Shown piece after piece: positions 17,456 to 45,834 of a stretch of 48,239 bases of DNA; position 1 is the stretch's first letter; every line of letters starts with the position of its first letter. Origin of the DNA: Poseidonia sp. (GTDB lineage: Archaea; Thermoplasmatota; Poseidoniia; Poseidoniales; Poseidoniaceae). Location of the stretch: contig JAYOHN010000005.1 of NCBI GenBank assembly GCA_038118245.1, positions 1 to 48,239 on the forward strand, written 5' to 3'. The translations under genes were made by a program, and so were the position numbers. The notes under the pieces were generated by a model. That model saw nothing but the letters and a program-made list of their open reading frames with translations, searched no databases and had not been told where the DNA came from.

Positions 17456-17503
17456 GTTCTCCTCACATCCTCCGACCTTGAAAATCATTGTTCACTTTGG
17501 TCT

Positions 17504-20365: not shown

Positions 20366-22880
20366 CGTCTTCACCTCCTGGGGCTGAAACGAGCGGTAAC
20401 GGCGGCAACTGATCGAGGGGAATCAGTTGTGGAGCGAGTTGACGCTCGTCCTCGGCCATCATCAAGTCAAGGTCTTTTCCAGCCACGAGTTGTTCCATAT
20501 ATGCAGCGCGCCGACGAGAGGTGCGAACGATGAGGGCAGCGAACGCTCCAAGCAAGAACCCGGTCCCGATGACAGCGTACGTGAGCCACGATGCGGCGGG
20601 GTCCTCACCCATGATGGCGATGGCGGCGGCAAGTTCGCCGTAATCGTTTGACCAACCGTCACCGTTGTCGTCGGGACACCCCTGAACATCCCGTTTCGAC
20701 CTGCCTGCTTCGTCAGGGCAATCGTCACGGAACGCACCGAGGGGGAGGTCACCGAACCCATCTTGGTCGGAGTCTCGCCACTGCAAGGCTTCCGTTGGAA
20801 AAGCGTCCCCGTTTCCAAAGGGGTGCGCGGGCCAGGAAGGTGTGGGGTCGGACCAACCATCGCCGTCGGTGTCTCGACAACCCAGCCGGTCGAGAAGCGA
20901 TGTTCCCCGGGTCTCCGGACAGGCATCGCCTTGATGCCCCGTCAGACGGTCGCCGTACCCGTCGCCGTCGGAATCTCGCCATTGCGTCGGCTCATGGAGG
21001 AAGGCGTCGCCAAGGTCGGACCAGCCGTCACCGTCGGTGTCTTTGCATCCCCAGCGGTCCCCTCCAGAGGACGGTCCCACCGAAGTGCCAGCAACATCCG
21101 GGCAGACATCGGCGGTCGTACCGCGTGGGTTATCGCCCCGACCATCGCCGTCAGCGTCGTGCCATTGGGTGGGGTCCTGCGGCCATGCATCGCCCGAACC
21201 GCCGGGGCTCGCCAACCACGAGGCGGTCGGGTCCGACCAACCATCGCCGTCACCGTCCGGGCACCCCCAACGGTCAAAGGTGGAATTTCCAAGCGTGGTG
21301 CGGCAGCCGTCGGGGCGGTAGGAAGCCCGCCATGTGTTTCCGTCGAAGTATTCGGTGTTATCACCAAACCCGTCATCATCGGTGTCATGCCACTGCGAGG
21401 CGTCCTCAGGGAAGGCATCGGCAAAACCCGCCGGGTGCGATGTCCACAAGTCGGTTGGGTCGGAATACCCGTCGCTGTCCATGTCGCGACAACCAAAGCG
21501 GTCGAAGCGGCTGATCCATCCCGAATCAACTTCCTCGGGAGTGGAATCGGGACACACGTCCCCTTCAAAGCCGGTTAAATTGTCACCGTATCCGTCCCCG
21601 TCGGCATCCCTGAACTGCGAGGGGATGAAAGGGAAATCGTCGATTTGGGTGGCCCCGTAGGTTTGGTTATCGCCCCAACCGTCCCCGTCGGTGTCGCGCC
21701 ACTGCGTTGGGTTGAACGGAAAGTCGTCGACACGCTGTGCTCCGAAGGATTGGTTGTCACCCCATCCGTCCCGGTCGGTGTCCAACCACTGGGTTGGTTC
21801 GAGGGGAAAAGCGTCCGACCCGTTGTCCTGGGTCCAATTTTCATCGCCATCGGAGTAGGCGTCGCCATCGGTGTCAGGGCAACCAAAACGGTCGGCAAAA
21901 GAAGCACCACGAACAAAGGGGCATGCATCGGGCTGGGTGGCGTTGTCGACAAACATCCCGAGCCCCCATAGATGCCGAGTCGCGTTGAGTCGGGAATCGG
22001 CCCAGTTGTCACCGTACCCATCTTCGTCGGTGTCGTTCCATTGCGTTGAATCGTTGGGAAAAGCGTCCGCCTCGCCAACGGGGTGAGCAAACCAAGGAAC
22101 GAACCCGTTCAATCCCCCTGGGTCAGGGTCGGAATGCCCGTCGCCGTCGGAATCAACGCACCCAAAGCGGTCGACTGAAGAGTACCCACGGCTGTACGTG
22201 CAATGGTCGCCTTGGAACCCCTCGATGTTGTCGCCGTAACCGTCGTTGTCGGAATCCAACCACTGCGTTGCATCGTCGGCAAAGGCGTCCGCACCGTTCT
22301 GCACACCCCAACCGCTGTCTGGGTCCGACCAACCGTCGCCGTCGTTGTCCAAACACCCGCTTCGGTCGTTCGTGGACGTGCCCACGAGGTTGACACAATC
22401 GTCTTCGGTGTCGATGAAACCGTCTTCGTCGGTGTCTCGGTTGGTTTTGTCGATGCTTGGGGTCAGCGTGTAATCAAAACCGTCGTTGCACCACGAGTCC
22501 CCGCCTTCCACCTTGAGCAGGATTTCTCCCGCAGTTGCAAGGGTTGTTGAAAGCGACGCCGAGGGGTTGGTGTCGTCCACGTTCGACGTCACCGAACCCA
22601 TCGTGAACGTTCCAATCCAACCGTCTCCCGGGCACCACCAGGCTGCATTGTTCATGCTTCCGGAGAACGAAACCCGAACAATATCGCCCTTCTTCCCTTG
22701 TATTTTCCAATAGTCGGTTTTGTCGGTTGGAGAACACCCGTCGGGGTCGCACACATAACCGCTTGATGAAACGCCGTCCGTGAGCCCGTTGGCGCTGGTC
22801 GGCGAGTTGTCGGCCGCCGCGGATGGAAGAGCATGGAAAAAAAGCGCCGCCAGAAGGACCACCACGACGGTGCGACGCAT
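20358..22880 (-). CDS. Membrane-anchored TSP3-like Ca-binding repeat surface protein
   Basis: Signal peptide and ~7 modules of GCxDxDGDGWSD...DAFPxxxTQWxDxDGDGxGDN...D.C, then TM + RRR. Confidence 0.85.
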   Translation of the reverse strand: MRRTVVVVLLAALFFHALPSAAADNSPTSANGLTDGVSSSGYVCDPDGCSPTDKTDYWKIQGKKGDIVRVSFSGSMNNAAWWCPGDGWIGTFTMGSVTSNVDDTNPSASLSTTLATAGEILLKVEGGDSWCNDGFDYTLTPSIDKTNRDTDEDGFIDTEDDCVNLVGTSTNDRSGCLDNDGDGWSDPDSGWGVQNGADAFADDATQWLDSDNDGYGDNIEGFQGDHCTYSRGYSSVDRFGCVDSDGDGHSDPDPGGLNGFVPWFAHPVGEADAFPNDSTQWNDTDEDGYGDNWADSRLNATRHLWGLGMFVDNATQPDACPFVRGASFADRFGCPDTDGDAYSDGDENWTQDNGSDAFPLEPTQWLDTDRDGWGDNQSFGAQRVDDFPFNPTQWRDTDGDGWGDNQTYGATQIDDFPFIPSQFRDADGDGYGDNLTGFEGDVCPDSTPEEVDSGWISRFDRFGCRDMDSDGYSDPTDLWTSHPAGFADAFPEDASQWHDTDDDGFGDNTEYFDGNTWRASYRPDGCRTTLGNSTFDRWGCPDGDGDGWSDPTASWLASPGGSGDAWPQDPTQWHDADGDGRGDNPRGTTADVCPDVAGTSVGPSSGGDRWGCKDTDGDGWSDLGDAFLHEPTQWRDSDGDGYGDRLTGHQGDACPETRGTSLLDRLGCRDTDGDGWSDPTPSWPAHPFGNGDAFPTEALQWRDSDQDGFGDLPLGAFRDDCPDEAGRSKRDVQGCPDDNGDGWSNDYGELAAAIAIMGEDPAASWLTYAVIGTGFLLGAFAALIVRTSRRRAAYMEQLVAGKDLDLMMAEDERQLAPQLIPLDQLPPLPLVSAPGGEDDA

Positions 22881-22941: not shown

Positions 22942-24333
22942 TCACTTTTGCCGACCAAGGCAGTGACGCAAACAGGATTCGAGGTCGGGATGCTCAAAGG
23001 CGTAACCGCTCTCCAGCAGACGTTCGGGCAACACACGTTGCCCGTCGAGCACCAATGCCTGGGCCATCTCCCCGAGCAAGAGACGAAGGGCAAACCCTGG
23101 AGCGGGCGCAAAGGCAGGACGTCGGAGAACACGGCCCAAGACCTTCGCATATGATTTCTGGGTCACGGGTTCCGGTGCCGTCAGGTTGTACACACCTTCG
23201 CACGAGGCCGTCATCATCAGGTGGTGAATGGCGTAAATCTGGTCGGCAAGGGAAATCCAAGAGTAATACTGGCGTCCCCCGCCCGCTGGCCCTCCGCCGC
23301 CCATTTTCGTTGGGAGAAGGAGCTTTTGCAGCGCACCCCCCATGGGGGTGGTGACAATGCCGGTGCGAAGAAAAACCGTCCGAATGCCGGCATCCAGCGC
23401 CGGCTGAGCAGCTCGCTCCCAAGCCACGCACGTCTCGGCGAGGAAATTGTCGCCCGGCGACGAAGTTTCGTTGAGTTTCTCGTCGCCCCGGTTGCCGTAA
23501 AACCCGATGGCTGAACCGCACAAAAACGCAGCCGGCGGCCGTTCCAACGCGGCTAACGTTTGGGCAAGATGGGCGGTCGGAACGGTGCGGCTGCTCACGA
23601 TCAGTTCCTTTCGTTTGGGGTTCCAGCGCTTGTCGCCAATGCCTGCTCCAGCAAGGTGAATCACGGTATCAAACCCGTTCAAGTCGCCTTCCAACACCTC
23701 GCCCGTGCGGTCGTCCCACACGACCACCGCGTCGTTTTTCGCATCGTCCGGAAGAACGGTTGATGGGCGCACGAGACGCGTGACACTGTGGCCTGCGGCA
23801 GCCAAAAAGGCGCACAACTGCGAGCCGATAAGACCGGTTGAACCGCTAACGAGGACGTTTTGTCGGGGCAGGTCAGCGAAGGCTTTGATGCGGCGAAGGT
23901 CGCTTTGCACCCGGTCGGTGCGGTAAGCAAACATCTGATCGAGGCGACCTTTCACGGTAAAGGGAGCGGTCCAAAACGTGAGCGGGTGGAAAGGCAAGCG
24001 CCACTGCACGGTGTCGCACAATTCGCTGGTCTCGGCGTCGAGCGAAAGGAAGCGATGTTCGTGGTCCCATGCCCCGAACGGCCCTTTTTCCATCACGTCG
24101 TTGAACACCTCTCCCGGTTTGACGCCGTGGTGCCGCGCCACCCACATCGGACGCAAGGGGCCGAGGCGGATGCGGAATCGGGTGCGAGCGTCGTCAACCA
24201 AAGCCCCTGCTTCAACCGGCTGGATGCCTTCCCATTCGGGCATGATGCGGCGAAAGGCCCCTGGGCTGTCGTACCATGCCCAAAGGTCTTCGACAGGAAC
24301 CTCAAACCGAGCGGTGTGTTGGTAAACGGGCAC
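22942..24333 (-). CDS. TIGR01777-family NAD-dependent epimerase/oxidoreductase fused to N-terminal SRPBCC (START-like) domain
   Basis: GPFGAWDHEHRF and QMFAYR (SRPBCC). VSGSTGLIG, IHLAGAGI, SAIGFYG, CVAWE, RTGIV, SWISLAD, YNLTAP. Confidence 0.9.
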   Translation of the reverse strand: MPVYQHTARFEVPVEDLWAWYDSPGAFRRIMPEWEGIQPVEAGALVDDARTRFRIRLGPLRPMWVARHHGVKPGEVFNDVMEKGPFGAWDHEHRFLSLDAETSELCDTVQWRLPFHPLTFWTAPFTVKGRLDQMFAYRTDRVQSDLRRIKAFADLPRQNVLVSGSTGLIGSQLCAFLAAAGHSVTRLVRPSTVLPDDAKNDAVVVWDDRTGEVLEGDLNGFDTVIHLAGAGIGDKRWNPKRKELIVSSRTVPTAHLAQTLAALERPPAAFLCGSAIGFYGNRGDEKLNETSSPGDNFLAETCVAWERAAQPALDAGIRTVFLRTGIVTTPMGGALQKLLLPTKMGGGGPAGGGRQYYSWISLADQIYAIHHLMMTASCEGVYNLTAPEPVTQKSYAKVLGRVLRRPAFAPAPGFALRLLLGEMAQALVLDGQRVLPERLLESGYAFEHPDLESCLRHCLGRQK

Positions 24334-24342
24334 GGCAATTCC

Positions 24343-25887
24343 TCATTGGTGGGTGGAGTAGAAGCCCGGACCTGAGCCAAGCAGGGTGCTTTGCCGGGCA
24401 TCTCCGTTGTATTTTTCGACATAGGCCTTTGTTTTGTATTTACGTGCCGTAGAGGCGCTGGTCATGCACCGAATCTTGCCGTAAACCGCTCGTTCAGTCC
24501 AGCCTCGGTCAAATTTGCCGAGCACCCAACCGATGCCCGTGTATGAATTGGGGTCGCGACCGTCCAAAGCCCATCGGTCGTTGAGGGCGATCATTCGTTC
24601 CATGGCCTCTTGAGGCGTGGGTGACCATTCCAAGATTTTCTTTCCCCAAAGCATGCGCAAGTAGTTGTGAATGATGCCTTCTTGGCGGAGTTGGTTTTGG
24701 GCAGCGTTCCAAAGTGGGTCGTGGGTGGACGCTGTTTCCAATTCTTCAAGCGTGTAAAGGTAAGGACGCTCATCGGTCTCGTGCTCTTCGAGGGTGGTTT
24801 GGGCCCATTGAGGCAACGAATCGTAGTCGGTGTGGTTCTCGACCATGGCACAATGAATGAAACCGATGTCCCTCCAGGTAATGATTTGGTCCAAGAAGGC
24901 CTCAACGGGTTCTGAAAGCCCCCACCAACCGCTGCGGCGACCGTCGTTGGGAGGGTTCACCAAACTCACGTCCCATTGATGGTGGGTGAAGATGTCGTGC
25001 AACACGGCATGGACGCTGATGTGGCCGAAGTGCAACCAGGGAGACAACCCGCTCGCACCGCGTTCTTGGGGATGGTTTCGCCGTTCGTGGTAGGCGGCTA
25101 AACGGCTGGAGAAGAACTCCTTCCAGCGTCGCTTCCCCTCAAGGTGACCGCCTCGCTTTCCAACGACCGGCTGGACATCGTGGTCAATGCTGAGCGTAGA
25201 GAGCGCTTGGCGCCCCACATCGCCGCCTTCGGCGACGCGCCAGAGAAACTCGTAGGGCGTTGGTGGCGTGTTGGTTTGCGAGAAGACCTCCTCCACCGTG
25301 CCCTTTGGGAGTCGGGGAAGGTCGTCGGTGGACCGCAGAGGCTTGGCCTCGGGGAACTCGTGCATGTGCTCCCGAATGGTTTTGTGGAGATGACGGCGCA
25401 GGGAATAGGCGGTGGAGAAATCACGGCCTTGAGCACGCATCGCCATGAAGCCGTTGGAATCCACGACATGGACTTCACAGGGTTGCACCGAGATGGCCGT
25501 GTCGAGCACGTGCTTGGGATAATAGGTTGGGTAATCGTCAATGACGCACGCTCGTGCTCGGTGCAACCACCCCTTGAGCAAACCCGAGGCCTCCTTGCGT
25601 TTGGTTTCGACGTACGGAACGTAGGTGACGCTCGACTGACTGAAACTGTCTCGGTTGTCAATCATGCCTTGGAGCACGAAGGTGGAGATGCGATCGTTGG
25701 CCCAACGGTGTTGGAGGGCCAAGCATTCCACCACCACCAGCGGGAGGCCGTGGTCCCGTGCAAGGTCAAGAGCGTGGTCGAGGGCGTGGTTCCAGTGCGG
25801 GCGGCGTGCGGCCGTCATCCAGTAAACGATGAGGTCACCCTCAGGGTTGGGCTCGCCGTGGATTTGGAGGCGAGTGGATGGAATCAT
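24343..25887 (-). CDS. phr: Class II CPD DNA photolyase
   Basis: YWM..ARR..WNHAL, SGLSPWLHFGHIS, THDPLWNAAQ, HNYLRMLWGKKILEW, NDRWALDGRDPNSY, DRGW.ER.VYGKIRCM. Alternative start is GTG 25896, overlapping the NUDIX stop. Confidence 0.93.
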   Translation of the reverse strand: MIPSTRLQIHGEPNPEGDLIVYWMTAARRPHWNHALDHALDLARDHGLPLVVVECLALQHRWANDRISTFVLQGMIDNRDSFSQSSVTYVPYVETKRKEASGLLKGWLHRARACVIDDYPTYYPKHVLDTAISVQPCEVHVVDSNGFMAMRAQGRDFSTAYSLRRHLHKTIREHMHEFPEAKPLRSTDDLPRLPKGTVEEVFSQTNTPPTPYEFLWRVAEGGDVGRQALSTLSIDHDVQPVVGKRGGHLEGKRRWKEFFSSRLAAYHERRNHPQERGASGLSPWLHFGHISVHAVLHDIFTHHQWDVSLVNPPNDGRRSGWWGLSEPVEAFLDQIITWRDIGFIHCAMVENHTDYDSLPQWAQTTLEEHETDERPYLYTLEELETASTHDPLWNAAQNQLRQEGIIHNYLRMLWGKKILEWSPTPQEAMERMIALNDRWALDGRDPNSYTGIGWVLGKFDRGWTERAVYGKIRCMTSASTARKYKTKAYVEKYNGDARQSTLLGSGPGFYSTHQ

Positions 25888-25892
25888 GGTGT

Positions 25893-26396
25893 TCACCGTT
25901 TCCCCCGAAATCGTGAACGTCCCGCCCGGTAGACGGCGTAGGGCCCGCTTCGCGGCGTCAATCCGTCCTGGTGGAGGGTGACCGCCGGCTGGGTAAGACC
26001 GTCGATGGCGAGTTGGTGCATGGTTTCGGAAACCCATTGAAGGTTGGTGAGTTCTGCGAGGGTGAACCAAGCGACCGATGAGATTTCGTCGCTGGCGTGG
26101 TCAGCCGCCGCTTCGCCCACCTGCATTTCGTAACAGAGGAAGACGGCTGGCCCGTCGTTACGAAGCGCCGTGCGAACGCCAGAAAGACCGATGACGGTGC
26201 CTGCAAACCCCGTTTCTTCATGCAGTTCACGAACGGCTGCCGCCTCTGGACTTTCGTTGGCTTCGACGTGGCCTTTGGGCAGGCCCCACCGACCAGCATG
26301 GCGACCAGCGGCTTCTTGGACCAAGAGGACGCGCCCATCTCGTACGGCCAGAGAGGCAACGCCGAGGTCACAAAGCAACTTAGCCATGTTCTCCAT
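25893..26396 (-). CDS. NUDIX hydrolase
   Basis: WGLPKGHVEANESPEAAAVRELHEETG Nudix box. Start at 26396 or 26387. Confidence 0.9.
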   Translation of the reverse strand: MENMAKLLCDLGVASLAVRDGRVLLVQEAAGRHAGRWGLPKGHVEANESPEAAAVRELHEETGFAGTVIGLSGVRTALRNDGPAVFLCYEMQVGEAAADHASDEISSVAWFTLAELTNLQWVSETMHQLAIDGLTQPAVTLHQDGLTPRSGPYAVYRAGRSRFRGKR

Positions 26397-26484
26397 TTTG
26401 TTGCATACTGTATATGAAGAACGGTTTCCTTCCAGCAGAGGAAAAAGACGATATTTTATATACAAATTGAACCGATTTTCTAAC
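26397..26484. promoter_or_regulatory. Back-to-back TATA promoters of the NUDIX-phr and ribA arms
   Basis: AT-rich spacer. TTCATATA on the minus strand (26418-26411) and TTTTATATA on the plus strand (26454-26462), each a short distance upstream of its start codon. Confidence 0.7.
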
Positions 26485-27093
26485 ATGCTGGGGGCGCCAC
26501 AACCATTAACGACACAACCCGAAGCGGAAGCCTTGCTCCCCACCAAACACGGCGAGTTCAAAATCCGAGCCTTTCGCGACCCGAGCGACGGTAAAGAACA
26601 CTGCATCCTCTTCGTTGGCGATCTGTCCGAAGGCACCCCGTTTGTCCGCATCCATTCCGAATGCCTGACCGGTGACGCCTTTGGGTCCCAGCGCTGCGAT
26701 TGCGGCCCCCAACTCGAAGCGTCCATGAAGGCCGTCCAAGAAGCCGGTCACGGCGCCATTGTCTACCTCCGCCAAGAAGGAAGAGGGATCGGCCTCTACG
26801 CCAAAATGCAAGCCTACGCTTTGCAAGACATCGGCTACGACACGCTTGATGCCAACCTCGCCCTCGGTTTGCCTGCCGATGCCCGACGGTACGACTTCGC
26901 AGCAGAGATGTTGTATTCCATGGGCGTCACGGACATTGAGCTTGCGACCAACAACCCCGACAAGCGGAAACAGCTGCTCGACAACGGCATCAACGTGGCG
27001 AACCGTGTCCCCATCGTGGTCGGACAGTGCGCCCACAACCGCTCCTACCTCTCGACCAAAGCCAAGCGAATGGGCCACATTCTTCCCATTTGA
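26485..27093 (+). CDS. ribA: GTP cyclohydrolase II
   Basis: VRIHSECLTGDAFGSQRCDCGPQL, YLRQEGRGIGL, DARRY, TNNPDK, YLSTK..RMGH. Start ATG 26485. Confidence 0.95.
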   Translation: MLGAPQPLTTQPEAEALLPTKHGEFKIRAFRDPSDGKEHCILFVGDLSEGTPFVRIHSECLTGDAFGSQRCDCGPQLEASMKAVQEAGHGAIVYLRQEGRGIGLYAKMQAYALQDIGYDTLDANLALGLPADARRYDFAAEMLYSMGVTDIELATNNPDKRKQLLDNGINVANRVPIVVGQCAHNRSYLSTKAKRMGHILPI

Positions 27094-27103
27094 GGTCGTT
27101 GAG

Positions 27104-27571
27104 ATGAAAGCAACGTTGGTGGGTCAAAAAGCACCCGAATTTGTTCTCGAAGACGACCAAGGCAACTCGTTCAACAGCGAGTCCCTCAGCGGCACTTGGC
27201 GAATCGTGTTTTTCTACTCAAGGCACAATTCACCCACGTGCAAGCGAGGATGTTTGACGTTCAAAGAACAGCACGACCTGTTTGCTTCTGCGGGCTGTTC
27301 CATCGTCGGCATTGGACCGGGGTCCGTGGAAGGTCTCGCATCGTTCAAAGCCGAATTAGGCGACCTTCCGTTCCCTCTCCTAGCTGACCCTGAACGGGAG
27401 GTCGGAAAGCGATTCAATGTCCCCCTCCACGTGGGCCAGTTTCCTGCCAAATCCTCCTTTTTGATTGGGCCCGACAACACGATTCACTACGTCTATGACT
27501 GGTTGTTCCGCCCCCGACGCCACGTCGCCAAGATTCTTGCAGACATTTCCAACGTCACGGGGGACAGTTGA
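27104..27571 (+). CDS. Peroxiredoxin-like (BCP/AhpC-TSA fold) protein with atypical active site
   Basis: VGQKAPEFVL.D..G, FFY...SPTC, LPFPLLADP, SFLIGPD. GAGGT RBS before ATG 27104. Confidence 0.8.
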   Translation: MKATLVGQKAPEFVLEDDQGNSFNSESLSGTWRIVFFYSRHNSPTCKRGCLTFKEQHDLFASAGCSIVGIGPGSVEGLASFKAELGDLPFPLLADPEREVGKRFNVPLHVGQFPAKSSFLIGPDNTIHYVYDWLFRPRRHVAKILADISNVTGDS

Positions 27572-28972
27572 ATGTGGGACGAGTTGTTGCTCGAGGCCGG
27601 ATTGAACGAACGAGAAGTCCGCTCGATCATGATCCTTGGCTCTCGGCCGAAAATGAAGGCCTCGGAACTTGCGAAAGAACTGAACACCACTCGGCTTGAC
27701 GCCTACAACAGCCTCTCCAGGCTCCAAGAAATGGGCATCGTCACCGCCACAGCGGACCGCCCCATGCTTTTCTCAAGCCTCCGAATCAACGAGGCCATGG
27801 AACACATCATCCAATCGAGAAAACAACAACTTGACCGATTGGTCGAGGGGTTTGAAGACCTCTCGAAAGGCATCACGGAAACCGATGCGTCTTACGAGAA
27901 GCAACGCCGAGACATCGACGACCCTCGTTTTGCCGTGCTCAAGGAGCGCAACCACATTTACAACCGTCTGCAAAAAATGGCCAACGATGCAGAAGAACGC
28001 CTCATCCTCTTGCTTGGGCAATTCGGCATCCTGCACTTGTGCCGTAACCCCGAAGCGCTGGAAGCGGTCAACACCGCCGCCGTTCGCGGCGTGGTCGTTC
28101 AGGTCATCACCCATCTTGACGGCCGGACGCTACGATTCTTCGACCAGCTGAACCCGACCATTGAAGTGCGGCATTCCGATGAATTGGACTCGCTTGGATT
28201 CGTGCAAGATCAGTCCGAGGTCATCCAATACCTCAACATCGAAGACAACCCGGTGGGACGAGGAAAAGAAGACGCAGCCCTCATCATCGAATCCGGGCCC
28301 TTTTCGCAAGCCCACCTCCACCTCATCGACGCTATCTGGGAGGGGGCAGTCTCGTTGGACACGGCACGCGCCCGATTTACGGAGAACCAAATCAACGACC
28401 CGCTTCGGTTGACCATTGGAGAGGGGTCGTTTCTCAAGAACGTCTCTGTCGCCCTCGGGTTTGACGGAGAGTTGCCCGAAGAAGACACCCCGTTTGACCC
28501 CGATGCGTTCTTTGCTGCCGGCAACGAAGTGAACGAAGCGCGCATGCGACTGACGGAGGGCAAACTGTCCAACCTCAAAGTGCTCGGCATTGATATTGGC
28601 CGGATGTTGCGCCAAATCGGGAACCGGGTTGGACAAGAAATTGCGTTTTCCCTCCGTTCCATTGAGAACGACATTGAATTCTTGGACGAGATGATGGATT
28701 GGTGGGAGCATGCCGGCCTGGGCTTGCTCCATTACGACGTCGACCCTCAATTCCATGTTGTGGTCGGATTGAACCACCCCCCACTCGACGACCCTGATGC
28801 GCTCCCCATGTGGCAGATGGACGACGGCATCATCGAAGGAGCTCTGTCCACCCGGTTTGCAAAAGATGCGAACGTGGTCATCCAGCGAGTGGATGGAAGC
28901 GGCTCAAAAGGCGACCTCTGGCGCTACCTCATCCACCGTCACGAATTGAACACCATTGAACTGGGCGATTGA
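27572..28972 (+). CDS. TrmB-family transcriptional regulator with effector domain and V4R-like C-terminus
   Basis: GLNEREVR...KASELAKELNTTRLDAYNSLSRLQEMGIV..TADRP (TrmB wHTH). Middle AAVRGVVVQVI PLD-like effector region. C-terminal LRQIGNRVG...WWEHAGLG...GIIEGAL. Confidence 0.85.
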   Translation: MWDELLLEAGLNEREVRSIMILGSRPKMKASELAKELNTTRLDAYNSLSRLQEMGIVTATADRPMLFSSLRINEAMEHIIQSRKQQLDRLVEGFEDLSKGITETDASYEKQRRDIDDPRFAVLKERNHIYNRLQKMANDAEERLILLLGQFGILHLCRNPEALEAVNTAAVRGVVVQVITHLDGRTLRFFDQLNPTIEVRHSDELDSLGFVQDQSEVIQYLNIEDNPVGRGKEDAALIIESGPFSQAHLHLIDAIWEGAVSLDTARARFTENQINDPLRLTIGEGSFLKNVSVALGFDGELPEEDTPFDPDAFFAAGNEVNEARMRLTEGKLSNLKVLGIDIGRMLRQIGNRVGQEIAFSLRSIENDIEFLDEMMDWWEHAGLGLLHYDVDPQFHVVVGLNHPPLDDPDALPMWQMDDGIIEGALSTRFAKDANVVIQRVDGSGSKGDLWRYLIHRHELNTIELGD

Positions 28973-28984
28973 GGTCGTTGCGAA

Positions 28985-30223
28985 ATGAAACTCTTGACGT
29001 TCATCCGTTTTTTCCGTCAACTCAAGGGCAAGAAGCCGGTTGACATCGAGCGGATTCAATCAATGGGGCTTCTCGCGGTCAAACTCGGGCAAATTTTTGC
29101 CCTTCGCCCGGACCTCATCGAGCCCGAACGCTGCATCGAACTGCAACGGCTTTACAGCCGAGCCGCCACCATACCTGAGGAAGACTCACAAGCACTCCTC
29201 GCCAAATTTGCACCGCCCGGATTCAAGGACCACTTCCAACACATCGAACCCAAACCCTTCGCTGCCGCCAGCATCGGCCAAATCCACAGAGCCGTCCTCA
29301 ACGACGGAACCAAGGTTGTGGTCAAAATCATCAAAGCCGATTTTGAAGCCTCTTTCCGGAGAGATGTTCGCCGCATGAAACGCTGGATTCGGCTCGGGTT
29401 GTTCTTCAACCCCCGCCTGCGGAAGGTCGGCAACCCCATCGGCTTGCTGGCCCACATTGAAGACTACACGCTGCGGGAGCTTGACCTTACCAACGAAATC
29501 CTCGGCCGAGATGACCTGTTGGCCAAAGCCGCCGAAGTGGAGGAGCACTTTCCCATGCCCCGACTCAAGTTTCCGACCATGTGGCAGAACCTCTCGAACC
29601 GCCGCGTCCTTGTGATGGAGGAAATCACCGCCCCGACGCTTGAGGACCATCTGAAACAGGGGACGATGGCCTGGGAGAACTTGCTCGAACTCTTTCGAAT
29701 TCACGGGGCCTTCATGTTTGGTCTGGGCACCTTCCATGGGGATTTGCACCCCGGGAACGCCATGATGGACGAGAACGGGGATTTCTTCTTCATCGATACG
29801 GGGGCCATTTGCCATGCTCCCGAGCATGTGCGAAACGCTCTGTTTGGATTCTTCTATTTCCTCGCCAAAGGCGAGTTGACGAACGCTTTTGACGCCATGC
29901 TGACCATGGCGGCGGTGCGCCCGACCGGCAGCACCCTCGAGACGTATTACCGTTCGATGGGTGAACTCTACGAAGGCTTCGTGGGCACCTCCGTGAGCGA
30001 AGTTTCGCTGACCGAGCAGATGATGAAGACGGTGAAAGCTGCCGTCCTTGCCGGTTGTGCGTTCGGAGAGGAAGCCTTTCCCATCATTCGTTCCCTGATG
30101 TACATGGACGGCATGGTGCTCAAGGGTCACCCTGAAGTGGATTTGATCAGTTCCATGGGGCCGTATCTGGACGAGTTCTCGGTCTTGATTGACCCCCACG
30201 GCATCATCAACACCGAGCCATAA
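28985..30223 (+). CDS. ABC1 / UbiB (AarF) atypical kinase
   Basis: KLGQ (KxGQ), RPDL, AAASIGQIHRA, VVKI, ELDL.NE, FHGDLHPGN, FIDTG. Confidence 0.92.
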   Translation: MKLLTFIRFFRQLKGKKPVDIERIQSMGLLAVKLGQIFALRPDLIEPERCIELQRLYSRAATIPEEDSQALLAKFAPPGFKDHFQHIEPKPFAAASIGQIHRAVLNDGTKVVVKIIKADFEASFRRDVRRMKRWIRLGLFFNPRLRKVGNPIGLLAHIEDYTLRELDLTNEILGRDDLLAKAAEVEEHFPMPRLKFPTMWQNLSNRRVLVMEEITAPTLEDHLKQGTMAWENLLELFRIHGAFMFGLGTFHGDLHPGNAMMDENGDFFFIDTGAICHAPEHVRNALFGFFYFLAKGELTNAFDAMLTMAAVRPTGSTLETYYRSMGELYEGFVGTSVSEVSLTEQMMKTVKAAVLAGCAFGEEAFPIIRSLMYMDGMVLKGHPEVDLISSMGPYLDEFSVLIDPHGIINTEP

Positions 30224-30255
30224 AGTGTTATTTTCGGCTAATTTTTTACGAACAA

Positions 30256-30291
30256 AAACCCGCCTTTATATGCATACACCTCTGGTGGAGG
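30256..30291 (+). promoter_or_regulatory. crtI-crtB promoter and RBS
   Basis: A-rich BRE-like stretch, TTTATAT at 30265-30271, GGAGG at 30287-30291 before ATG 30295. Confidence 0.65.
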
Positions 30292-30294
30292 ACC

Positions 30295-31908
30295 ATGTCA
30301 GCCACCGCTACGCCGACCGTCGCCATCATCGGGGCAGGACCAGGAGGTCTTGCTTCTGCGCTTCTCCTCGCCAAAGCGGGGGTTGACGTGACCGTTTTTG
30401 AGCGGTCGTCAGCGGTTGGTGGCCGAAACAAGGTGTTTGACCGGGATGGGTTCAAGTTTGACCTCGGCCCCACCTTTTTCCACTACCCCGAAGTTATCGA
30501 GGACATTTTCAAAGCCATCGGCAAGGACGCTCACAAAGAACTCAACCTCCACAAACTGGATTTGAACTACCGCCTGATTTTCGGCCAAGGAGGTCAACTT
30601 GACTGCACGAGCGACTTGGACGAAATGACCGAGCGAATCCGGGAGCTTTCCGGCGACAAGAACGCCTCGGCCTTCCAACGCTACGTCACCGACAACCGGA
30701 CAAAACTGGAGAAGTCCAAAGCCTGCCTGCAGGAGCCCTGGTACGGGCCAACCGATCTGCTTTCAAAACGGGCCATGCGGGTGGCGGGGGTTCTTCGGCC
30801 TCAACGCTCCGTGGCTCGAGATTTGATGAAACTCTTTGACGACGACCGCTTGATGCTGGCGATGTCGTTCCAAACCAAGTACCTTGGAATGTCGCCGTTC
30901 AATTGCCCAAGCCTGTTCACGATGCTGGCTTTCCTCGAATACGAATACGGCATCTTCCATCCGCTGGGTGGACTCGGCAGCGTGAGCGAACGGATGGCGA
31001 GCATTGCAAAGGACCTCGGCGTCACCTTCCGGATGAACGAAGCCGTGGAATCGGTCATCATGAACGGGAAAACCATCACCGGCGTTCGCACGGCAAAGGG
31101 CGAATTCATGGCCGACCGCGTGGTCATGAACGCCGACTTTGCCAACGGCATGACCCAACTCTTCCCCGACACCGTCCGAAAGAAATGGTCGAACAAAAAA
31201 CTGGACGGAAAGAAATACTCCTGTTCGACGTTCATGCTTTACCTCGGGGTTGACCGGACCTACAACGACCTCCCACACCACCAAATCTACGCCTCCGCCA
31301 CCTACGAGAGCAACCTCGAAGACATCGAAAAACACCACCGAATCACCTGGGACGATCCCTCTGTTTACGTCCAAAACGCCTCCGTCACCGACCCGAACCT
31401 CGCTCCTGAGGGATGCTCAACCGTTTATGCGCTCGTTCCCGTCTCGCACGTCCACGAGAACATTGACTGGGCCAAGGAAAAGGACGCCTACCGTGACCGC
31501 ATACTAGCGCAAATTGAAGAAAAATTGGGCTTTGAGAACATCAAGGACCACATCGTCACGGAGATGGTCATCACCCCCGAAGACTGGGGAGACCACTGCT
31601 ACCGAGGCGCCGTCTTCAACCTCGCTCACGGTCTCGACCAGATGCTCTGGCGACGGCCAAAGAACCAGTTTGACGAAATCAACAACCTCTACTTGGTCGG
31701 TGGTGGAACGCACCCCGGCAGCGGCCTTCCGGTGATTTACGAGTCGGCCCGCATCAGCAGCAAATTGCTGCTGGACAGTTTGGGCATCATTCCGGACTGG
31801 AACGGCGTTGACACGTGGTTCGAAAGCCGGAAGCGGTCCAAGCAAGGACGTGCGGCGGCCAACAAAACCTCAAAAGAGCCGTCCACGGGAACCCCAACAT
31901 CTGCTTGA
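30295..31908 (+). CDS. crtI: Phytoene desaturase family protein (CrtI/CrtN)
   Basis: IIGAGPGGL, GGRN, GFKFDLGPT, SFQTKYLGMSP, YSCSTFMLYLG, NLYLVGGGTHPGSGLPVIYESARI. Confidence 0.9.
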   Translation: MSATATPTVAIIGAGPGGLASALLLAKAGVDVTVFERSSAVGGRNKVFDRDGFKFDLGPTFFHYPEVIEDIFKAIGKDAHKELNLHKLDLNYRLIFGQGGQLDCTSDLDEMTERIRELSGDKNASAFQRYVTDNRTKLEKSKACLQEPWYGPTDLLSKRAMRVAGVLRPQRSVARDLMKLFDDDRLMLAMSFQTKYLGMSPFNCPSLFTMLAFLEYEYGIFHPLGGLGSVSERMASIAKDLGVTFRMNEAVESVIMNGKTITGVRTAKGEFMADRVVMNADFANGMTQLFPDTVRKKWSNKKLDGKKYSCSTFMLYLGVDRTYNDLPHHQIYASATYESNLEDIEKHHRITWDDPSVYVQNASVTDPNLAPEGCSTVYALVPVSHVHENIDWAKEKDAYRDRILAQIEEKLGFENIKDHIVTEMVITPEDWGDHCYRGAVFNLAHGLDQMLWRRPKNQFDEINNLYLVGGGTHPGSGLPVIYESARISSKLLLDSLGIIPDWNGVDTWFESRKRSKQGRAAANKTSKEPSTGTPTSA

Positions 31909-31917
31909 GGTGATACC

Positions 31918-32910
31918 ATGAAGGCCTTGCTGCTCAACAACGCTTACGCCTATTGCGAAGCGGTTTGCCGCGAAGCCTCCACCACCTTCTACTCCTCGTT
32001 CAGCGCCCTCCAATTCGAAAAGCGAAGAGCCGTGCATGCGGTGTATGCGCTGTGCCGCTGGGTGGACGACATCGTCGATGGAGATGAAGAACCGAACGTG
32101 TTCCACACGCCGCAACTTGAGGCAGCGACCGATGAACGGCAGGCTCTGGTCAGCGAAATCCACGCTGGGAAAACCCCTGTGCTGCCGGCTGAGGAACACC
32201 GACAACGGATGATGGCCTTGACCGAGATTCGGATGAAACTCAACCAGGTCTACGCCCAAACCATCACGGCTAACGACCACCCCATCTTCATCGCTCTGCA
32301 GGACGTGGTCGCTCGGTACCCCATCAAGCTCAACGATTTCGAAACCGTCATTGAAGGAATGGAAGACGACCTTTACCCGGTTCAGAACCAGACGTGGGAC
32401 GAACTTCGTTCCTATTGTTACAAGGTGGCTTCGGCCGTGGGCCTCATCCTGATCGAAATTTACGGCTACGAAGACCGGGCCGCCCGACTCCACGCCATTG
32501 ACCTCGGCATCCAAATGCAACTGATCAACGTCCTGCGCGACATCAACGAAGACATGGAGCGGGGGCGCATCTACCTCCCCGAGGAGGTGTTGGCCTCGCA
32601 CAACATCAGTTTGGAAATGCTGCGAAAGGAAAACGTCGCCCAGTCATTGGCCTGGCGCGGCTTCATCATGGAATACATGGATGTGGTGAAGCGCCACCAG
32701 GCGTCGGCATCCCACCTGTTTGCGTACCTTGACGCCCGTGCTCGCGTTCAACCCGAAATCATGGCCGACGCCTATGCCTCGATTTTCAACGAAATTGTGC
32801 GCCGCTCGGGGGATGTGTTCAGTCAGCCGGTGAAGTTGTCCTCATGGCGAAAATTGCTCTTTGGCGTGCGGCTCAGCCTGCGGAAGTTGAAGGCTCGCTA
32901 TTTCGCTTGA
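31918..32910 (+). CDS. crtB: Phytoene/squalene synthase
   Basis: AYAYC, TFY, AVYALCRWVDDIVD, YCYKVASAVG, LGIQMQLINVLRDINED..RGRIYLP. GAGGTGA RBS. Confidence 0.92.
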   Translation: MKALLLNNAYAYCEAVCREASTTFYSSFSALQFEKRRAVHAVYALCRWVDDIVDGDEEPNVFHTPQLEAATDERQALVSEIHAGKTPVLPAEEHRQRMMALTEIRMKLNQVYAQTITANDHPIFIALQDVVARYPIKLNDFETVIEGMEDDLYPVQNQTWDELRSYCYKVASAVGLILIEIYGYEDRAARLHAIDLGIQMQLINVLRDINEDMERGRIYLPEEVLASHNISLEMLRKENVAQSLAWRGFIMEYMDVVKRHQASASHLFAYLDARARVQPEIMADAYASIFNEIVRRSGDVFSQPVKLSSWRKLLFGVRLSLRKLKARYFA

Positions 32911-32976
32911 GAACCGAATCACAGGGTGCCCTTTGACGCGACGGGTAGGCAGAGGGTACCCTATGATGCCCTGCCC

Positions 32977-33453
32977 TCAAAGCGACGCCGAAAGACCGTA
33001 CTTTTCACCCAGGTCTGCGCAGATGGTTTCCAAGAGGTCCACGTCGTCTTTTGAGAACGCGGCGGGAAGGTCTGAATCCACGTCCAAAACGGCAACGACT
33101 TCACCGTTGGGCGCCACGACCGGCACCACGACTTCGCTGTTCGTGCTGCTGCTGCAAGCGATGTGTTCGGGCCGAACATGGACGTCAGGAACGTCTTGGG
33201 TTTGGGCCGTCCGGGCCGCAGCACCGCAGATGCCTCGGTCAAACGGGATGTCAAGGCAACCGTGGCCGCCTTGGTACGGGCCGATCTTCAGGTGTTGAGG
33301 GCGCACCGTTCGGTAAAAACCCGTCCAGTGAAAGTGGTCGAAGGCGTGGTGCAGCTCGCACACGACGGTCGCCATGGCAGCGACCCAATCGTCCTCGTCG
33401 CTCAACAAGCCGCCGATGCGGGCCTGCACCTCTTTGTGGTGTTCGCTGACCAT
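32977..33453 (-). CDS. msrC: GAF-domain free methionine-R-sulfoxide reductase
   Basis: WTGFY, GPYQG..GC..I...RGICGAAA, HIACSS..NSEVVVP, LDVDS. Start ATG 33453. Confidence 0.85.
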   Translation of the reverse strand: MVSEHHKEVQARIGGLLSDEDDWVAAMATVVCELHHAFDHFHWTGFYRTVRPQHLKIGPYQGGHGCLDIPFDRGICGAAARTAQTQDVPDVHVRPEHIACSSSTNSEVVVPVVAPNGEVVAVLDVDSDLPAAFSKDDVDLLETICADLGEKYGLSASL

Positions 33454-33505
33454 GAGTGAACTTTTGACATGTGATTTTTCAGCCTTTGCTTGCCTGTTTG
33501 CAGCC

Positions 33506-34987
33506 TTAGTCATCAAGCAGCGGAATCAGCGTTCCAAAGTCTTCGTAGAGGCTTGGGCCGCTGGCCAAGTAGTACACCGACCCGCGCCCGTCTCGCGAAT
33601 CTTGAGCCGTGGCGTTCTCGTTGGTGGCGCATTCACCGGTGCATCCGTCGGCAAAAGCGACGTAGACACGCCCCTCGCGGTCGATGTGCAGGTCGTTGAA
33701 GTCGAGCAGGTTTCGGTTGGACCCGCCGATGTCTCGGCAGTCGCCGGAGTTGAGGCAGATGGAGCCCACCTGCACGGGGTCATCGGTCACTCGGTAGGTG
33801 TGGAAGACGGGGTTCTCGTCCAAGGCGTTCAGGGAGTAGGTGATGTAGAGGTGGTAGGTGGCGTTGTTTGGAGCGTAGTGTGCGTTGCCGTTCCACGGAT
33901 TGCCGTCAATGTCGGATTGATTGAGCATCTCGTCGTTTTCGCTTCCCAAGTAGGTCACAGCGATGCGCCCGGCGTCCCCAGCATCGGTCTGAGGGAAGAC
34001 CGAAGAGATGACGTTGACCGGCGAAATGCGGATGCTCTCTTGCTCCCAGGATTCACCAGAATCGAACGAACGGGCCATGTAGACGCCCTCGTCACCGCCC
34101 GTCCAAACGTGGTAGGCGTTGGAATCCGAGTCGGCCGAGACCTCCGAATTCTTGCGAGGGTTCGGTGTACCGGTGTCTTCGCCCATGGTTCGTTCAAACC
34201 ACGAAAAGCCGTTGTCCTTCGAGACGATGACCGTGGGGGTGGCGACACGAGGCGTCACGTAGACCGTACCGTCGGGAGCGGTGGAAATCGCTCCGTGAAG
34301 GCCACCGTTGGTGGTGGCGAGCCCGATGATTTGACCGCCCAATTCAAAGGTCGCTCCGCCGTCAACGCTTGTGAAGCAAAAGATTCCAGCGAGTTTGTTG
34401 TAGCAGTAGTACACCGCCGTTTCGTAAAAGTTGCTCGTGATTTGACCCAAGGCGCCGTAACCGCTGCTCGTCCACGGTCCGCTGGCGAGTTTGATGTGGT
34501 CGTTGATGGGCGTGGTTCCCGAGTCGTGCGGGTTGCCCATCCAGGTTTCGCCGTCGTCGTCGCTCCAGCAAATCCAAGACGTTTCCAATCCGATCATCTG
34601 CACCCCAAAGACACGGTCCGTGATGGGGTCCACCCAACCGTAGGGGTCGCTGGTGGTCGGGGAACAAGCCACGGGGTCTTGGCTCTCTTCCCATGATGCC
34701 CCGTAGTCGCACGAACGCATGACCTTCTCCATCGCGATGAAGAAAATGCAGCCGCTCGAGGTGATGCCGATGCTGGGCTCTTTGCCCGTCTCACCGACAT
34801 CGCTGAACTGGAAGGTCATCGGTTCAACCTCAACATCGATGAGTTGACCGGTTTTGTCCGTCACGAACACACGCCGTTCCTCGCTGTCCTCCATCGGTGG
34901 CGTCACCACGGCTTCCTCCTCACCGAAGCAACCCGAGAGGGACATCATGACCACCATCAAGGAAAGAAGGACAGCGTTGGATTTCAT
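33506..34987 (-). CDS. Lipoprotein with BNR/Asp-box (sialidase-like) beta-propeller
   Basis: Lipobox LSGC. Asp-boxes SCDYGASW, SDDDGETW, SVDGGATF, SKDNGFSW, SFDSGESW. Confidence 0.8.
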   Translation of the reverse strand: MKSNAVLLSLMVVMMSLSGCFGEEEAVVTPPMEDSEERRVFVTDKTGQLIDVEVEPMTFQFSDVGETGKEPSIGITSSGCIFFIAMEKVMRSCDYGASWEESQDPVACSPTTSDPYGWVDPITDRVFGVQMIGLETSWICWSDDDGETWMGNPHDSGTTPINDHIKLASGPWTSSGYGALGQITSNFYETAVYYCYNKLAGIFCFTSVDGGATFELGGQIIGLATTNGGLHGAISTAPDGTVYVTPRVATPTVIVSKDNGFSWFERTMGEDTGTPNPRKNSEVSADSDSNAYHVWTGGDEGVYMARSFDSGESWEQESIRISPVNVISSVFPQTDAGDAGRIAVTYLGSENDEMLNQSDIDGNPWNGNAHYAPNNATYHLYITYSLNALDENPVFHTYRVTDDPVQVGSICLNSGDCRDIGGSNRNLLDFNDLHIDREGRVYVAFADGCTGECATNENATAQDSRDGRGSVYYLASGPSLYEDFGTLIPLLDD

Positions 34988-42957: not shown

Positions 42958-43060
42958 CGTTTGGAACCTGTTGCAATCCCTCTTCAAAGGTTCCCTCCGC
43001 TGTGAAGACCCTATGGCGGAGGGAGGAAGCCATAAATCCCGATTTCAAGTGGTGGGAGTC

Positions 43061-45726: not shown

Positions 45727-45834
45727 GAGGACCCACCCTGAAGGTCGGGCGCCTCCTTCATCAAACATCCCCACGGCTGATTCTGCTCCTGCGATTGGGT
45801 TGCCCTTTTGACCCACGGCCCCCGTGGTCCCAGC

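Follow-up and report, generated by a model that had tools for sequence, protein, structure and literature searches.

In bacteria, carotenoid genes, photolyase and accessory oxidoreductases are placed under one stress or light signal in the CarH/LitR and RpoE-ChrR regulons, and the Thermus LitR/LdrP regulon is an example of such a light regulon. Light-dependent carotenogenesis without a B12 photoreceptor is described in Corynebacterium glutamicum, where the MarR-type regulator CrtR binds a divergent intergenic region and represses the crt genes (PMC6739363), and CrtR was reported to respond to isoprenoid pyrophosphates (PMC5401885). In methanogens, the redox-sensitive DNA binding of MsvR is described as dependent on the cysteines of its V4R domain (PMC3729527). 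By analogy, these systems appear to be the closest working counterparts of the locus described here, which lies in a 48,239-nucleotide stretch of a Poseidonia genome (contig JAYOHN010000005.1, positions 1 to 48,239; hereafter the window). The locus has two divergent arms that encode, among others, a class II photolyase, a GTP cyclohydrolase II (RibA), a peroxiredoxin (Prx)-like protein, a TrmB-type regulator and the carotenoid proteins CrtI and CrtB. We consider it, with a probability of about 0.5, an accessory island specific to the order Poseidoniales that equips photic-zone lineages against sunlight damage under the control of the TrmB-V4R protein. No earlier description of this island, its regulator or its motif was found in the literature searched.

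The island regulator resembles MsvR in that both combine an archaeal winged helix with a C-terminal V4R-type domain, are encoded at a presumed target locus linked to a promoter inverted repeat, and have antioxidant genes next to them (PMC3729527). It differs from MsvR in its TrmB/TrmBL2-like N-terminal half with a PLD-like domain, in the absence of the V4R cysteines that MsvR needs and in its host, an aerobic marine heterotroph; the MsvR model NF053755 matches residues 335-438 (E 9e-7) with 28.8 bits, against an equivalog cut-off of 220 bits. CrtR likewise has a winged helix and no photoreceptor domain, whereas it is bacterial, belongs to another family, lacks a V4R domain and controls the crt operon only, with no photolyase, ribA or Prx; we regard it as a functional analogy and not as a relative. 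With TrmB and TrmBL2 of the Thermococcales the island regulator shares the winged helix, the coiled coil and the PLD-like domain, but it carries a V4R-like domain in place of the sugar-binding C-terminal subdomain, and the identity is 14-18%. No TACT-N3-AGTA site of the TGM type stands out by eye in the spacer between the two arms. In contrast to the CarH/LitR and RpoE-ChrR regulons, no B12-binding, MerR, sigma or anti-sigma domain was found by Pfam in the scanned open reading frames (ORFs) of the window, and the promoters are of the archaeal type, with a TATA box and a B recognition element (BRE). A preliminary description of this DNA had seen no B12-CarH, LOV, BLUF or sigma factor in the window; our scan, too, detected no B12-binding, LOV/PAS, BLUF or sigma-factor domain in the 12 named ORFs of the locus and its edges or in selected non-overlapping ORFs of at least 110 amino acids outside it. 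Carotenoid and photolyase genes are also clustered in another Thermoplasmatota lineage, Thermoprofundales subgroup E, whose heliorhodopsin-carotenoid-PhrB-UvsE cluster is interpreted as protecting the cells from oxidative stress caused by light (PMC9585477). That cluster differs in containing crtZ, crtD, cruA, crtU, uvsE and a heliorhodopsin proposed as the sensor, and no ribA, Prx or TrmB-V4R gene is reported in it (PMC9585477); in the window genome, the rhodopsin genes lie on contigs other than that of the island.

We read the locus from six-frame ORFs, start-codon mapping and Pfam/NCBIfam scans in the window genome, a Poseidonia (Marine Group IIa) genome labelled G000 that is 78% complete. 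The two-arm gene layout given in the preliminary description was recovered to the base, and its placing of the DNA in the Poseidoniales was right as well. The features are as follows.

22942-24333, minus strand: fusion of an SRPBCC-like domain with a TIGR01777/SDR39U1-type NAD-binding oxidoreductase, 463 amino acids, last gene of the left arm (TIGR01777 313 bits; C-terminal DUF1731 79.6 bits)
24343-25887, minus strand: class II cyclobutane pyrimidine dimer photolyase (phr)
25893-26396, minus strand: NUDIX hydrolase, first gene of the left arm (PF00293 76 bits)
26397-26484, no strand: AT-rich divergent promoter spacer, 88 base pairs (bp), 33% GC, with two back-to-back TATA boxes
about 26410-26417, minus strand: TATA box of the left arm, in the spacer
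26422-26427, minus strand: left inner element AAACCG, conserved, forming an imperfect dyad with AGACGA
26446-26451, plus strand: right inner element AGACGA, conserved, forming an imperfect dyad with AAACCG
26455-26462, plus strand: TATA box of the right arm, in the spacer
26485-27093, plus strand: RibA (GTP cyclohydrolase II), accessory second copy (PF00925 205 bits)
27104-27571, plus strand: peroxiredoxin-like (BCP/PrxQ-like) thiol protein
27572-28972, plus strand: TrmB-type regulator, start codon abutting the Prx stop codon
28985-30223, plus strand: ABC1/UbiB-family atypical kinase
30224-30294, plus strand: internal crtI-crtB promoter, AAACCCG-CC-TTTATAT
30295-31908, plus strand: crtI, CrtI-family carotenoid (phytoene-type) desaturase of the island type
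31918-32910, plus strand: crtB, phytoene/squalene-synthase family (PF00494, SQS_PSY, 219 bits)
32977-33516, minus strand: GAF-domain free methionine-R-sulfoxide reductase (MsrC/fRMsr-like), convergent on crtB

The spacer is exactly as long and as AT-rich as had been claimed, its GC content standing against 57% for the cluster. The intergenic gaps are 5 and 9 bp in the left arm and, in order, 10, 0, 12, 71 and 9 bp in the right arm. The tight packing reported before thus holds for the gaps of 0-12 bp within the arms and fails at the 71-bp gap between abc1 and crtI, which has its own conserved TATA promoter. The convergent msrC gene is also present as reported, and its product matches solved fRMsr structures (3mmh E 8e-28, 1vhm E 1e-25, 1f5m E 9e-25), but it is not a conserved member of the island.

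A scan of species-representative genomes with the regulator gave 147 relatives. The 80 best loci, with 71-98% identity, were compared for gene order by local tblastn with the window proteins; almost all of them carry the label Poseidonia, Poseidoniaceae or Poseidoniales. In 63 of these 80 loci the complete set of nine genes is present with order and strands unchanged; the other 17 comprise 16 that lack only genes at the end of the locus or contig and one, L046, that also lacks ribA between the NUDIX gene and Prx. The nine-gene arrangement is therefore not a product of chance. The msrC-like gene stands beside crtB in a single locus (L082), and in the others crtB is followed directly by a BNR-like gene with no GAF/msrC gene between them. 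The regulator is the most conserved island gene, with a median identity of 91%, followed by crtI with 87%; the others have 83, 78, 76, 74, 74 and 72%, and the NUDIX protein is the least conserved with 58% over 76 loci.

For a wider comparison, 201 Poseidoniales genomes were sampled, in which full-length regulator orthologues have at least 49% identity and a paralogue is about 35% identical; 24 orthologue loci, drawn from 20 genera in the two families Poseidoniaceae and Thalassarchaeaceae, were then set beside six paralogue loci. ribA, Prx and the regulator are contiguous in 22 of the 24 orthologue loci (the exceptions are one contig end and G145, which lacks ribA), the divergent pair of phr and the SRPBCC-SDR gene is present in 22, with the latter following phr, the ABC1 gene adjoins the regulator in 19 and the NUDIX gene occurs in 11. 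crtI and crtB are attached to the locus, relocated or absent from it, and where they are missing they are found elsewhere in the genome, still paired. None of the island genes is present at the six paralogue loci. The synteny that the preliminary description had proposed to check is thus kept in both families, and the island has a fixed core, the SRPBCC-SDR gene, photolyase and sometimes NUDIX on one side and the second ribA (ribA2), the Prx-like gene and the regulator on the other, to which the ABC1 gene and crtI-crtB are usually attached. In a sample of 301 genomes of the phylum, no orthologue or paralogue of the regulator was found outside the Poseidoniales, the sister family of the class having none in eight genomes, and other lineages gave only matches of 24-28% identity to its N-terminal half. 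The island is specific to the order.

Some single-genome signs of decay or assembly error were seen: the missing ribA of L046 noted above, the absence of any ribA match in G145 (locus L105), an in-frame TAG in the crtI match of G027 (G027:C1:160146-161678) and an in-frame TGA in the island ribA match of G049 (G049:C10:27201-27767).

The distribution of the island follows that of rhodopsin. Rhodopsin (PF01036) was detected in 122 of the 201 Poseidoniales genomes; with regulator matches classed by hand (G019 as a split orthologue, and G176, left unclassed, as negative), it is present in 120 of the 136 genomes with a regulator orthologue versus 2 of the 65 without, counts that come from related genomes, many of them incomplete metagenome-assembled genomes (MAGs), that overstate independence and that are descriptive rather than a statistical test, which has to be set against our reading. 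The locus is thus unequally distributed and far rarer in rhodopsin-less lineages, as had been expected from a photoprotective role. A second ribA shows the same pattern: among the 136 regulator-positive genomes, 129 have at least two copies, five have one and two have none, and among the 65 negative ones the corresponding numbers are 3, 61 and 1. The other ribA of the window genome is a stand-alone gene on another contig (G000:C56:1657-2262) and is 57.5% identical to the island copy. A clean absence of the block is seen in G023 (97% complete), where the flanks lie 1.2 kb apart versus 7.6 kb in the island carrier G027 of the same genus, and G023 has no regulator orthologue, no rhodopsin and one ribA. 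Gain or loss of the island occurs block-wise and goes along with that of rhodopsin and the second ribA copy. At the gene level this agrees with published surveys in which photolyase tracks rhodopsin, all rhodopsin-bearing Poseidoniales genera encoding photolyase and a deep family being without both (PMC6461757, PMC10480650).

Two side observations concern these genomes. The window genome has two rhodopsin genes on different contigs (G000:C11:23610-24317 and G000:C2:36558-37226), and most relatives have one match. The MscS-type channel gene that borders the G027 island (L099:8324-9205) is 100% identical over 1036 bases to G023:C5:490734-491769, on another contig of that genome. G023 is a different species with flanks only ~73% identical, and such a match suggests a recent transfer, a mobile piece common to both genomes or an artefact of binning.

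The gene products suggest how such an island might act. The photolyase, which would repair UV dimers, matches TIGR00591 over residues 19-493 with 348 bits, a superfamily-type model whose cut-off of 550 is not reached, and matches in full length the solved structures 8oet, 2xry and 3umv, which we take to be class II photolyases (E 1e-69, for 8oet and 2xry, to 2e-55). It is the only match to the photolyase/cryptochrome family in this 78% complete genome (PF03441, window positions 24646-24882 alone). The extra RibA, which exceeds its curated cut-offs (NF001591 258 versus 148 bits; TIGR00505 235 versus 206), would raise the flavin supply for photolyase and CrtI, both of which use flavin adenine dinucleotide. 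Alternatively, it may hydrolyse oxidised guanine nucleotides alongside the NUDIX protein, for which no NCBIfam equivalog cut-off was reached; GTP cyclohydrolase II can hydrolyse 8-oxo-dGTP, and ribA of E. coli belongs to the soxRS regulon. An 8-hydroxy-5-deazaflavin antenna of the photolyase, as implied before, finds no backing in the genome: the two cofH-like matches (291 and 270 bits) fall below the cut-off of 374 and are probably other radical-SAM relatives. The Prx-like protein would remove peroxides. It exceeds the AhpC-TSA Pfam cut-off (85.7 versus 26 bits) and stays below that of the BCP equivalog NF006960 (56.9 versus 140); its motif S43-P-T-C46-K-R-G-C50 (SPTCKRGC) is invariant in 103-104 of 104 loci, and the CxxxC spacing differs from that of the canonical peroxidatic motif PxxxTxxC. 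The ABC1 kinase (PF03109 129 bits, cut-off 22.9) lies below the UbiB equivalog cut-off (TIGR01982 164 versus 488), and roles are known for the plastid ABC1 kinases. The SRPBCC-SDR fusion shares its two-domain build with PDB 3oh8, which it matches over residues 12-462, and the Polyketide_cyc match of its N-terminal domain (residues 1-155) is weak, with E 0.0011. CrtB and CrtI, finally, would make an acyclic carotenoid that quenches singlet oxygen.

In the predicted architecture of the regulator, a TrmB winged helix is followed by a coiled coil and a PLD-like domain, and a V4R-like sensor domain lies at the C-terminus (about residues 330-456). The winged helix matches PF01978 at residues 8-68 with 33.0 bits, above the cut-off of 25.6. 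A full-length AlphaFold model was built from a 34-sequence alignment (mean pLDDT, the predicted local distance difference test score, 78), and Foldseek/VIA on this 466-residue model reported the N-terminal domains only: residues 1-264, with the winged helix, coiled coil and PLD-like domain, resemble TrmBL2 (5bpd, Z 16.8) and TrmB (3qph, Z 14.6; 2f5t, Z 15.6). The 3qph and 2f5t alignments stop at about residue 264, so that the sugar-binding C-terminal subdomain of TrmB was not recovered, and residues 300-466 are modelled with a V4R-like fold. The C-terminal 160 residues, folded alone (pLDDT 84.8), gave Z values only modestly above the stated background of the tool, with BcsD (9.4), PoxR (8.8; 121 residues aligned, root-mean-square deviation 3.7), DmpR (8.3), a Bet3-like TRAPP protein (8.3), the V4R protein MJ1460 (7.2) and H-NOX (6.6) as matches; the domains of PoxR and DmpR sense phenol, and a relationship between V4R and Bet3 is known. 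A PDB profile search with this domain yielded only a weak match, 2osd (E 1.2), and Pfam V4R (PF02830) did not match the window regulator even at E 5, while a full-length paralogue with 34% identity (L109) reaches 43.8 bits, above the cut-off of 31. We favour a V4R-like fold because the sequence evidence, that is the MsvR match and the V4R match of the paralogue, agrees with the modest structural values.

The match of the C-terminal domain to the MsvR model brings up a thiol-based redox switch, in which the regulator would sense oxidants through V4R cysteines and de-repress antioxidant genes. MsvR itself is described as using such cysteines and as binding its own promoter region at an inverted repeat (PMC3729527), and the paralogue of the island regulator keeps four cysteines and sits beside genes for Fe-S assembly, flavin mononucleotide (FMN) reductase and superoxide dismutase. 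In the alignment, which holds 27 orthologues among its 34 sequences, columns 412, 423, 449 and 459 are cysteine in five to six paralogues; in the island orthologues, the first three columns have no cysteine (P/W/V and others), and column 459 is W in most and cysteine in four of the 27. Most orthologues carry only one or two cysteines (four in L095), none of them conserved in the V4R part, and the MsvR-type redox cysteines are thus missing. Given that this loss already contradicts it, we judge a thiol switch of the MsvR kind very improbable. Since the paralogue retains the four V4R cysteines and the island orthologues do not, the island regulator looks like a derivative of a redox-sensing family whose signal has changed.

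The paralogue, ~35% identical and with the four V4R cysteines (L109:9215-10585, L110:9237-10607, L113:9164-10549), is also present in rhodopsin-less genera. Its immediate neighbour is a gene for IscA-like Fe-S assembly; genes for FdhD, a molybdopterin oxidoreductase and an FMN reductase are nearby, as is one for a superoxide dismutase in L110, and the paralogue is a candidate Fe-S or redox regulator of the Poseidoniales.

In the reading that we prefer, that of a photic-zone defence island under its own regulator, the signal would probably be a small hydrophobic or aromatic ligand bound in the cysteine-less V4R-like domain, and not light itself or thiol oxidation. No photoreceptor domain was found in the regulator, whose domains are the winged helix, the PLD-like and the V4R-like domain; with a ligand-binding fold of this kind as sensor, any response to light would be indirect. 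We suggest, more tentatively and as an unlikely elaboration, that the ligand is a light- or oxidation-derived small molecule, such as a flavin photoproduct, a carotenoid or apocarotenoid or an oxidised prenyl lipid, and that the regulator would switch on a dispersed regulon of photolyase, the dedicated RibA, Prx, CrtBI and possibly a cupredoxin through an AAACR-TATA dyad. If true, archaea would have a new way of sensing sunlight stress that needs no photoreceptor.

The candidate operator lies in the spacer. The 76 aligned Poseidoniaceae spacers have the conserved columns gTATaT..A...C.GTTT....CC and aaa..ACgaG..tTTATA, in which the inner elements stand just inside the TATA boxes and the 16-20 bases between them vary. 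Spacers from the whole order cannot be aligned, and read by eye they follow the same plan, TATA-N4-6-[C/G]YGTTT-N17-20-AAACR-N3-5-TATA, with dyads such as CTGTTT...AAACAG in one Poseidoniaceae genus and GTGTTT...AAACAC in one Thalassarchaeaceae genus. Matches to the strict dyad YGTTY-N15-24-RAACR are present in 14 of the 21 spacers taken from across the order (shuffle mean 0.4, maximum 3) and in 21 of 74 Poseidoniaceae spacers (mean 1.3, maximum 6), and a relaxed dyad in 51 of the 74 (mean 2.7, maximum 8). A half of this arrangement, AAAC[A/G/C]-N3-6-TATA, precedes crtI in the window at 30256, with the ATG 23 nucleotides after the TATA match, and the block AAAACC...TTTATAT / TTTAATAA is kept before crtI across the Poseidoniaceae loci compared. 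Unlinked crtB and crtI genes of four Thalassarchaeaceae genomes have the module in five of the five upstream regions that are not merely the end of the preceding gene. The Thalassarchaeaceae loci, 236 kb in all, contain 22 copies of the module versus a shuffle mean of 7.7 (maximum 14); 12 of these matches are in main spacers (10 of 13 loci) and four before crt genes, and the module is also found before a cupredoxin gene beside the island and once more at the corresponding position of a second locus. When written as strict IUPAC patterns, the spacer elements of Poseidonia are nearly unique in the genome, and a whole-spacer nhmmer profile found no significant second copy there, the next best matches (E 0.12-0.14) lying inside coding sequence.

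A shared element that links the phr/ribA spacer with the crt promoters, including unlinked ones, fits one common control, which the preliminary description had proposed for both arms. The TrmB-V4R protein, probably a dimer, would bind the dyad YGTTT-N17-20-AAACR inside the divergent TATA boxes and set both arms at once, and the single AAAC[A/G/C]-N3-6-TATA module would bring the crtI/crtB promoter, linked or unlinked, under the same control. TrmB-type control of the locus is inferred from the position and conservation of the regulator and from the dyad element. An unconstrained search of the spacers for 6-mer inverted repeats gave way to fixed patterns, as one or two mismatches are common by chance and shuffles were not convincingly beaten, and an automatic half-site finder was noisy and sometimes picked sites downstream of the TATA box; the half-sites were read by eye.

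In addition, plastocyanin/azurin-family cupredoxin genes in the window genome, a member of the Poseidoniaceae (G000:C23:19298-19774, locus L136), and in a Thalassarchaeaceae genome (L099:14873-15358) are preceded by AAACAG-N3-4-TATA, with the ATG 22 nucleotides downstream in G000, and in the latter genome the gene is a neighbour of the island. The cupredoxin gene is possibly an extra member of the island promoter class.

Several observations weigh against this reading, and some of them would suit a neighbourhood that has no common control, is kept together by descent and operon economy and has a strong basal BRE and TATA box as its spacer, the TrmB-like protein regulating elsewhere or acting in chromatin as TrmBL2 does. 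Structurally, residues 1-262 of the regulator match TrmBL2 best, which is an abundant chromatin protein. The BRE/TATA spacing of archaeal promoters is established, as are leaderless transcripts; the halves of the dyad lie at BRE positions, and an inverted repeat would arise from two divergent promoters even if no repressor were involved. Within the window genus, AGACGA on the right mirrors AAACCG on the left only poorly. Of 14 occurrences of the relaxed module in the window genome, three are at island promoters and others precede genes for the cupredoxin, a nitroreductase, an Lhr-like helicase and TFB, so that the AAACR-TATA element may mark a promoter class rather than an operator. Only 16 generic TATA-plus-gene sites were available in the genome, two of them with RRACR, which is too few for a BRE consensus. 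Rhodopsin was not detected in 16 regulator-positive genomes, and the ties of the island genes to light or to the regulator rest on sequence. Even so, we find the absence of common control doubtful. The regulator carries a ligand-sensor domain as an addition, its orthologues are confined to the island, and it is the island's most conserved gene. Of the 22 motif matches in the Thalassarchaeaceae loci, 16 belong to promoters of the island or of crt genes, and the ~15 further genes of each locus mostly have none. This scarcity at other promoters of the loci compared favours a specific element over a generic BRE, as would, in a small sample, the presence of RRACR at just two of the 16 generic sites. 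The block-wise gain and loss with rhodopsin and ribA2 also argues for one functional unit.

Expression data bear on the same question. A single public RNA library, a poly(A)-selected marine metatranscriptome stored in the form of contigs, covers 25 of the 30 bins of the locus with contigs of 90-99% identity; it shows presence only. One RNA contig of 1192 nucleotides runs from 26497, 12 nucleotides inside ribA and flush with the adapter, through Prx into the regulator gene, which is compatible with a leaderless polycistronic message whose 5' end is at or near the ATG, ~23 nucleotides after the TATA box. In a published dark incubation, a MAG of genus O1 carries the SRPBCC-phr and ribA_2 core as genes 715-717 (PMC9723583). 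After 24 h of darkness, ribA_2 was unchanged (log2 fold change +0.33, adjusted P 0.85), which again would suit a locus without common control, and the crtI and crtB orthologues (genes 661 and 660) changed by -2.4 and -2.1 log2 units with adjusted P of 0.21 and 0.30 (PMC9723583 Table S6). phr, Prx and the regulator were outside the tested list, genes 715, 716, 718 and 719 being missing from the Bin 19-2 sheet (PMC9723583 Table S6). These published data are weak and mixed, and they, too, count on the opposing side.

The same study takes the depletion of a crtD transcript in the dark as light control of retinal synthesis (PMC9723583), and the island could accordingly be seen as a chromophore-supply locus in which CrtB and CrtI feed retinal, via lycopene and beta-carotene, to proteorhodopsin and the remaining genes support phototrophy rather than protection. 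The two rhodopsin genes of the genome and the co-occurrence of the island with rhodopsin are in line with this, and Marine Group II (MGII) is cited as a rhodopsin carrier without blh in a paper that proposes an unknown retinal route for another organism (PMC7734400). However, the crtD with significant depletion after darkness is another member of the CrtI family, gene 41 (PMC9723583). Neither blh nor a lycopene cyclase was found in the 78% complete window genome (no match to PF15461, TIGR03753 or PF18916), and blh exceeded its cut-off in 21 of the 201 genomes, all Poseidoniaceae, and in none of the 99 Thalassarchaeaceae, though 42 of these have rhodopsin. Matches to PF05834 in the window genome were weak generic matches to FAD proteins and were rejected as lycopene cyclase. 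Five blh genomes each have two full-length CrtI-family genes above the cut-off (three in G178): an island-type CrtI of ~472-487 bits and a second CrtI of ~628-646 bits beside crtB-crtY-blh. In the two that were annotated, the retinal genes form a self-contained divergent cassette, crtI on one side and crtB-crtY-blh on the other (L127, G144:C40:34000-46000; L128, G146:C11:1-12000), besides the island-type crtI near the regulator. Because the blh genomes carry this separate cassette, the island crtB-crtI pair is, as judged from gene content, not the canonical retinal branch. The core of phr, ribA2, Prx and regulator moreover persists where the crt genes are unlinked, and overall we regard chromophore supply as an unlikely role for the locus.

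For the protective role that we favour, the simplest reading of the island crtB-crtI product is an acyclic protective carotenoid, and a contribution as precursor supply to an unknown retinal route is possible. CrtI is well supported (TIGR02734 490.8 bits, cut-off 238.1) and is the only crtI match in the window genome. A further point on the opposing side is that crtB lies below every NCBIfam equivalog cut-off, including those for CrtB (cyanobacterial NF045686 141 versus 550 bits; NF042419 96 versus 480), with HpnD as the best match (206 versus 279), so that the island enzyme may perform C30 instead of C40 chemistry. The window genome also has, at G000:C54 (L123:3098-5480), a second gene of the SQS_PSY family (247 bits), immediately preceded by a further weak SQS_PSY-like stretch, an HpnC/HpnD-like pair that suggests squalene or C30 chemistry separate from the island crtB.

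Taken as a real, order-specific defence island of photic lineages with a plausible regulatory circuit, the locus offers a concrete testable unit, comprising a regulator with a defined sensor domain, a candidate operator, a gene set and an ecological correlate, presence with rhodopsin and absence without it. MGII archaea are among the most abundant archaea of the surface ocean and have no cultured member, and their regulation is known only from sequence. The second RibA belongs to a photic tool-kit, and the regulator orthologue together with the second ribA could serve as a simple genomic marker of photic versus aphotic ecotypes within a genus; if our reading is true, the gain and loss of one cassette would explain how MGII ecotypes move between surface and deep water. 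A protective carotenoid branch set apart from the canonical retinal cassette would also bear on how blh-less MGII obtain retinal.

Further features of the window lie outside the island. A UvrC excinuclease gene, with a function in UV repair, is located at 45808-47556, ~12 kb downstream of the island and separated from it. The island is also flanked by genes for very large predicted surface proteins. One of them, an Asp/Gly-rich repeat protein of 840 amino acids (20358-22880), has no Pfam match and many paralogues on other contigs; the other two are an FG-GAP protein of 2158 amino acids (11015-17488) and a beta-helix/PKD protein of 1607 amino acids (38167-42987).

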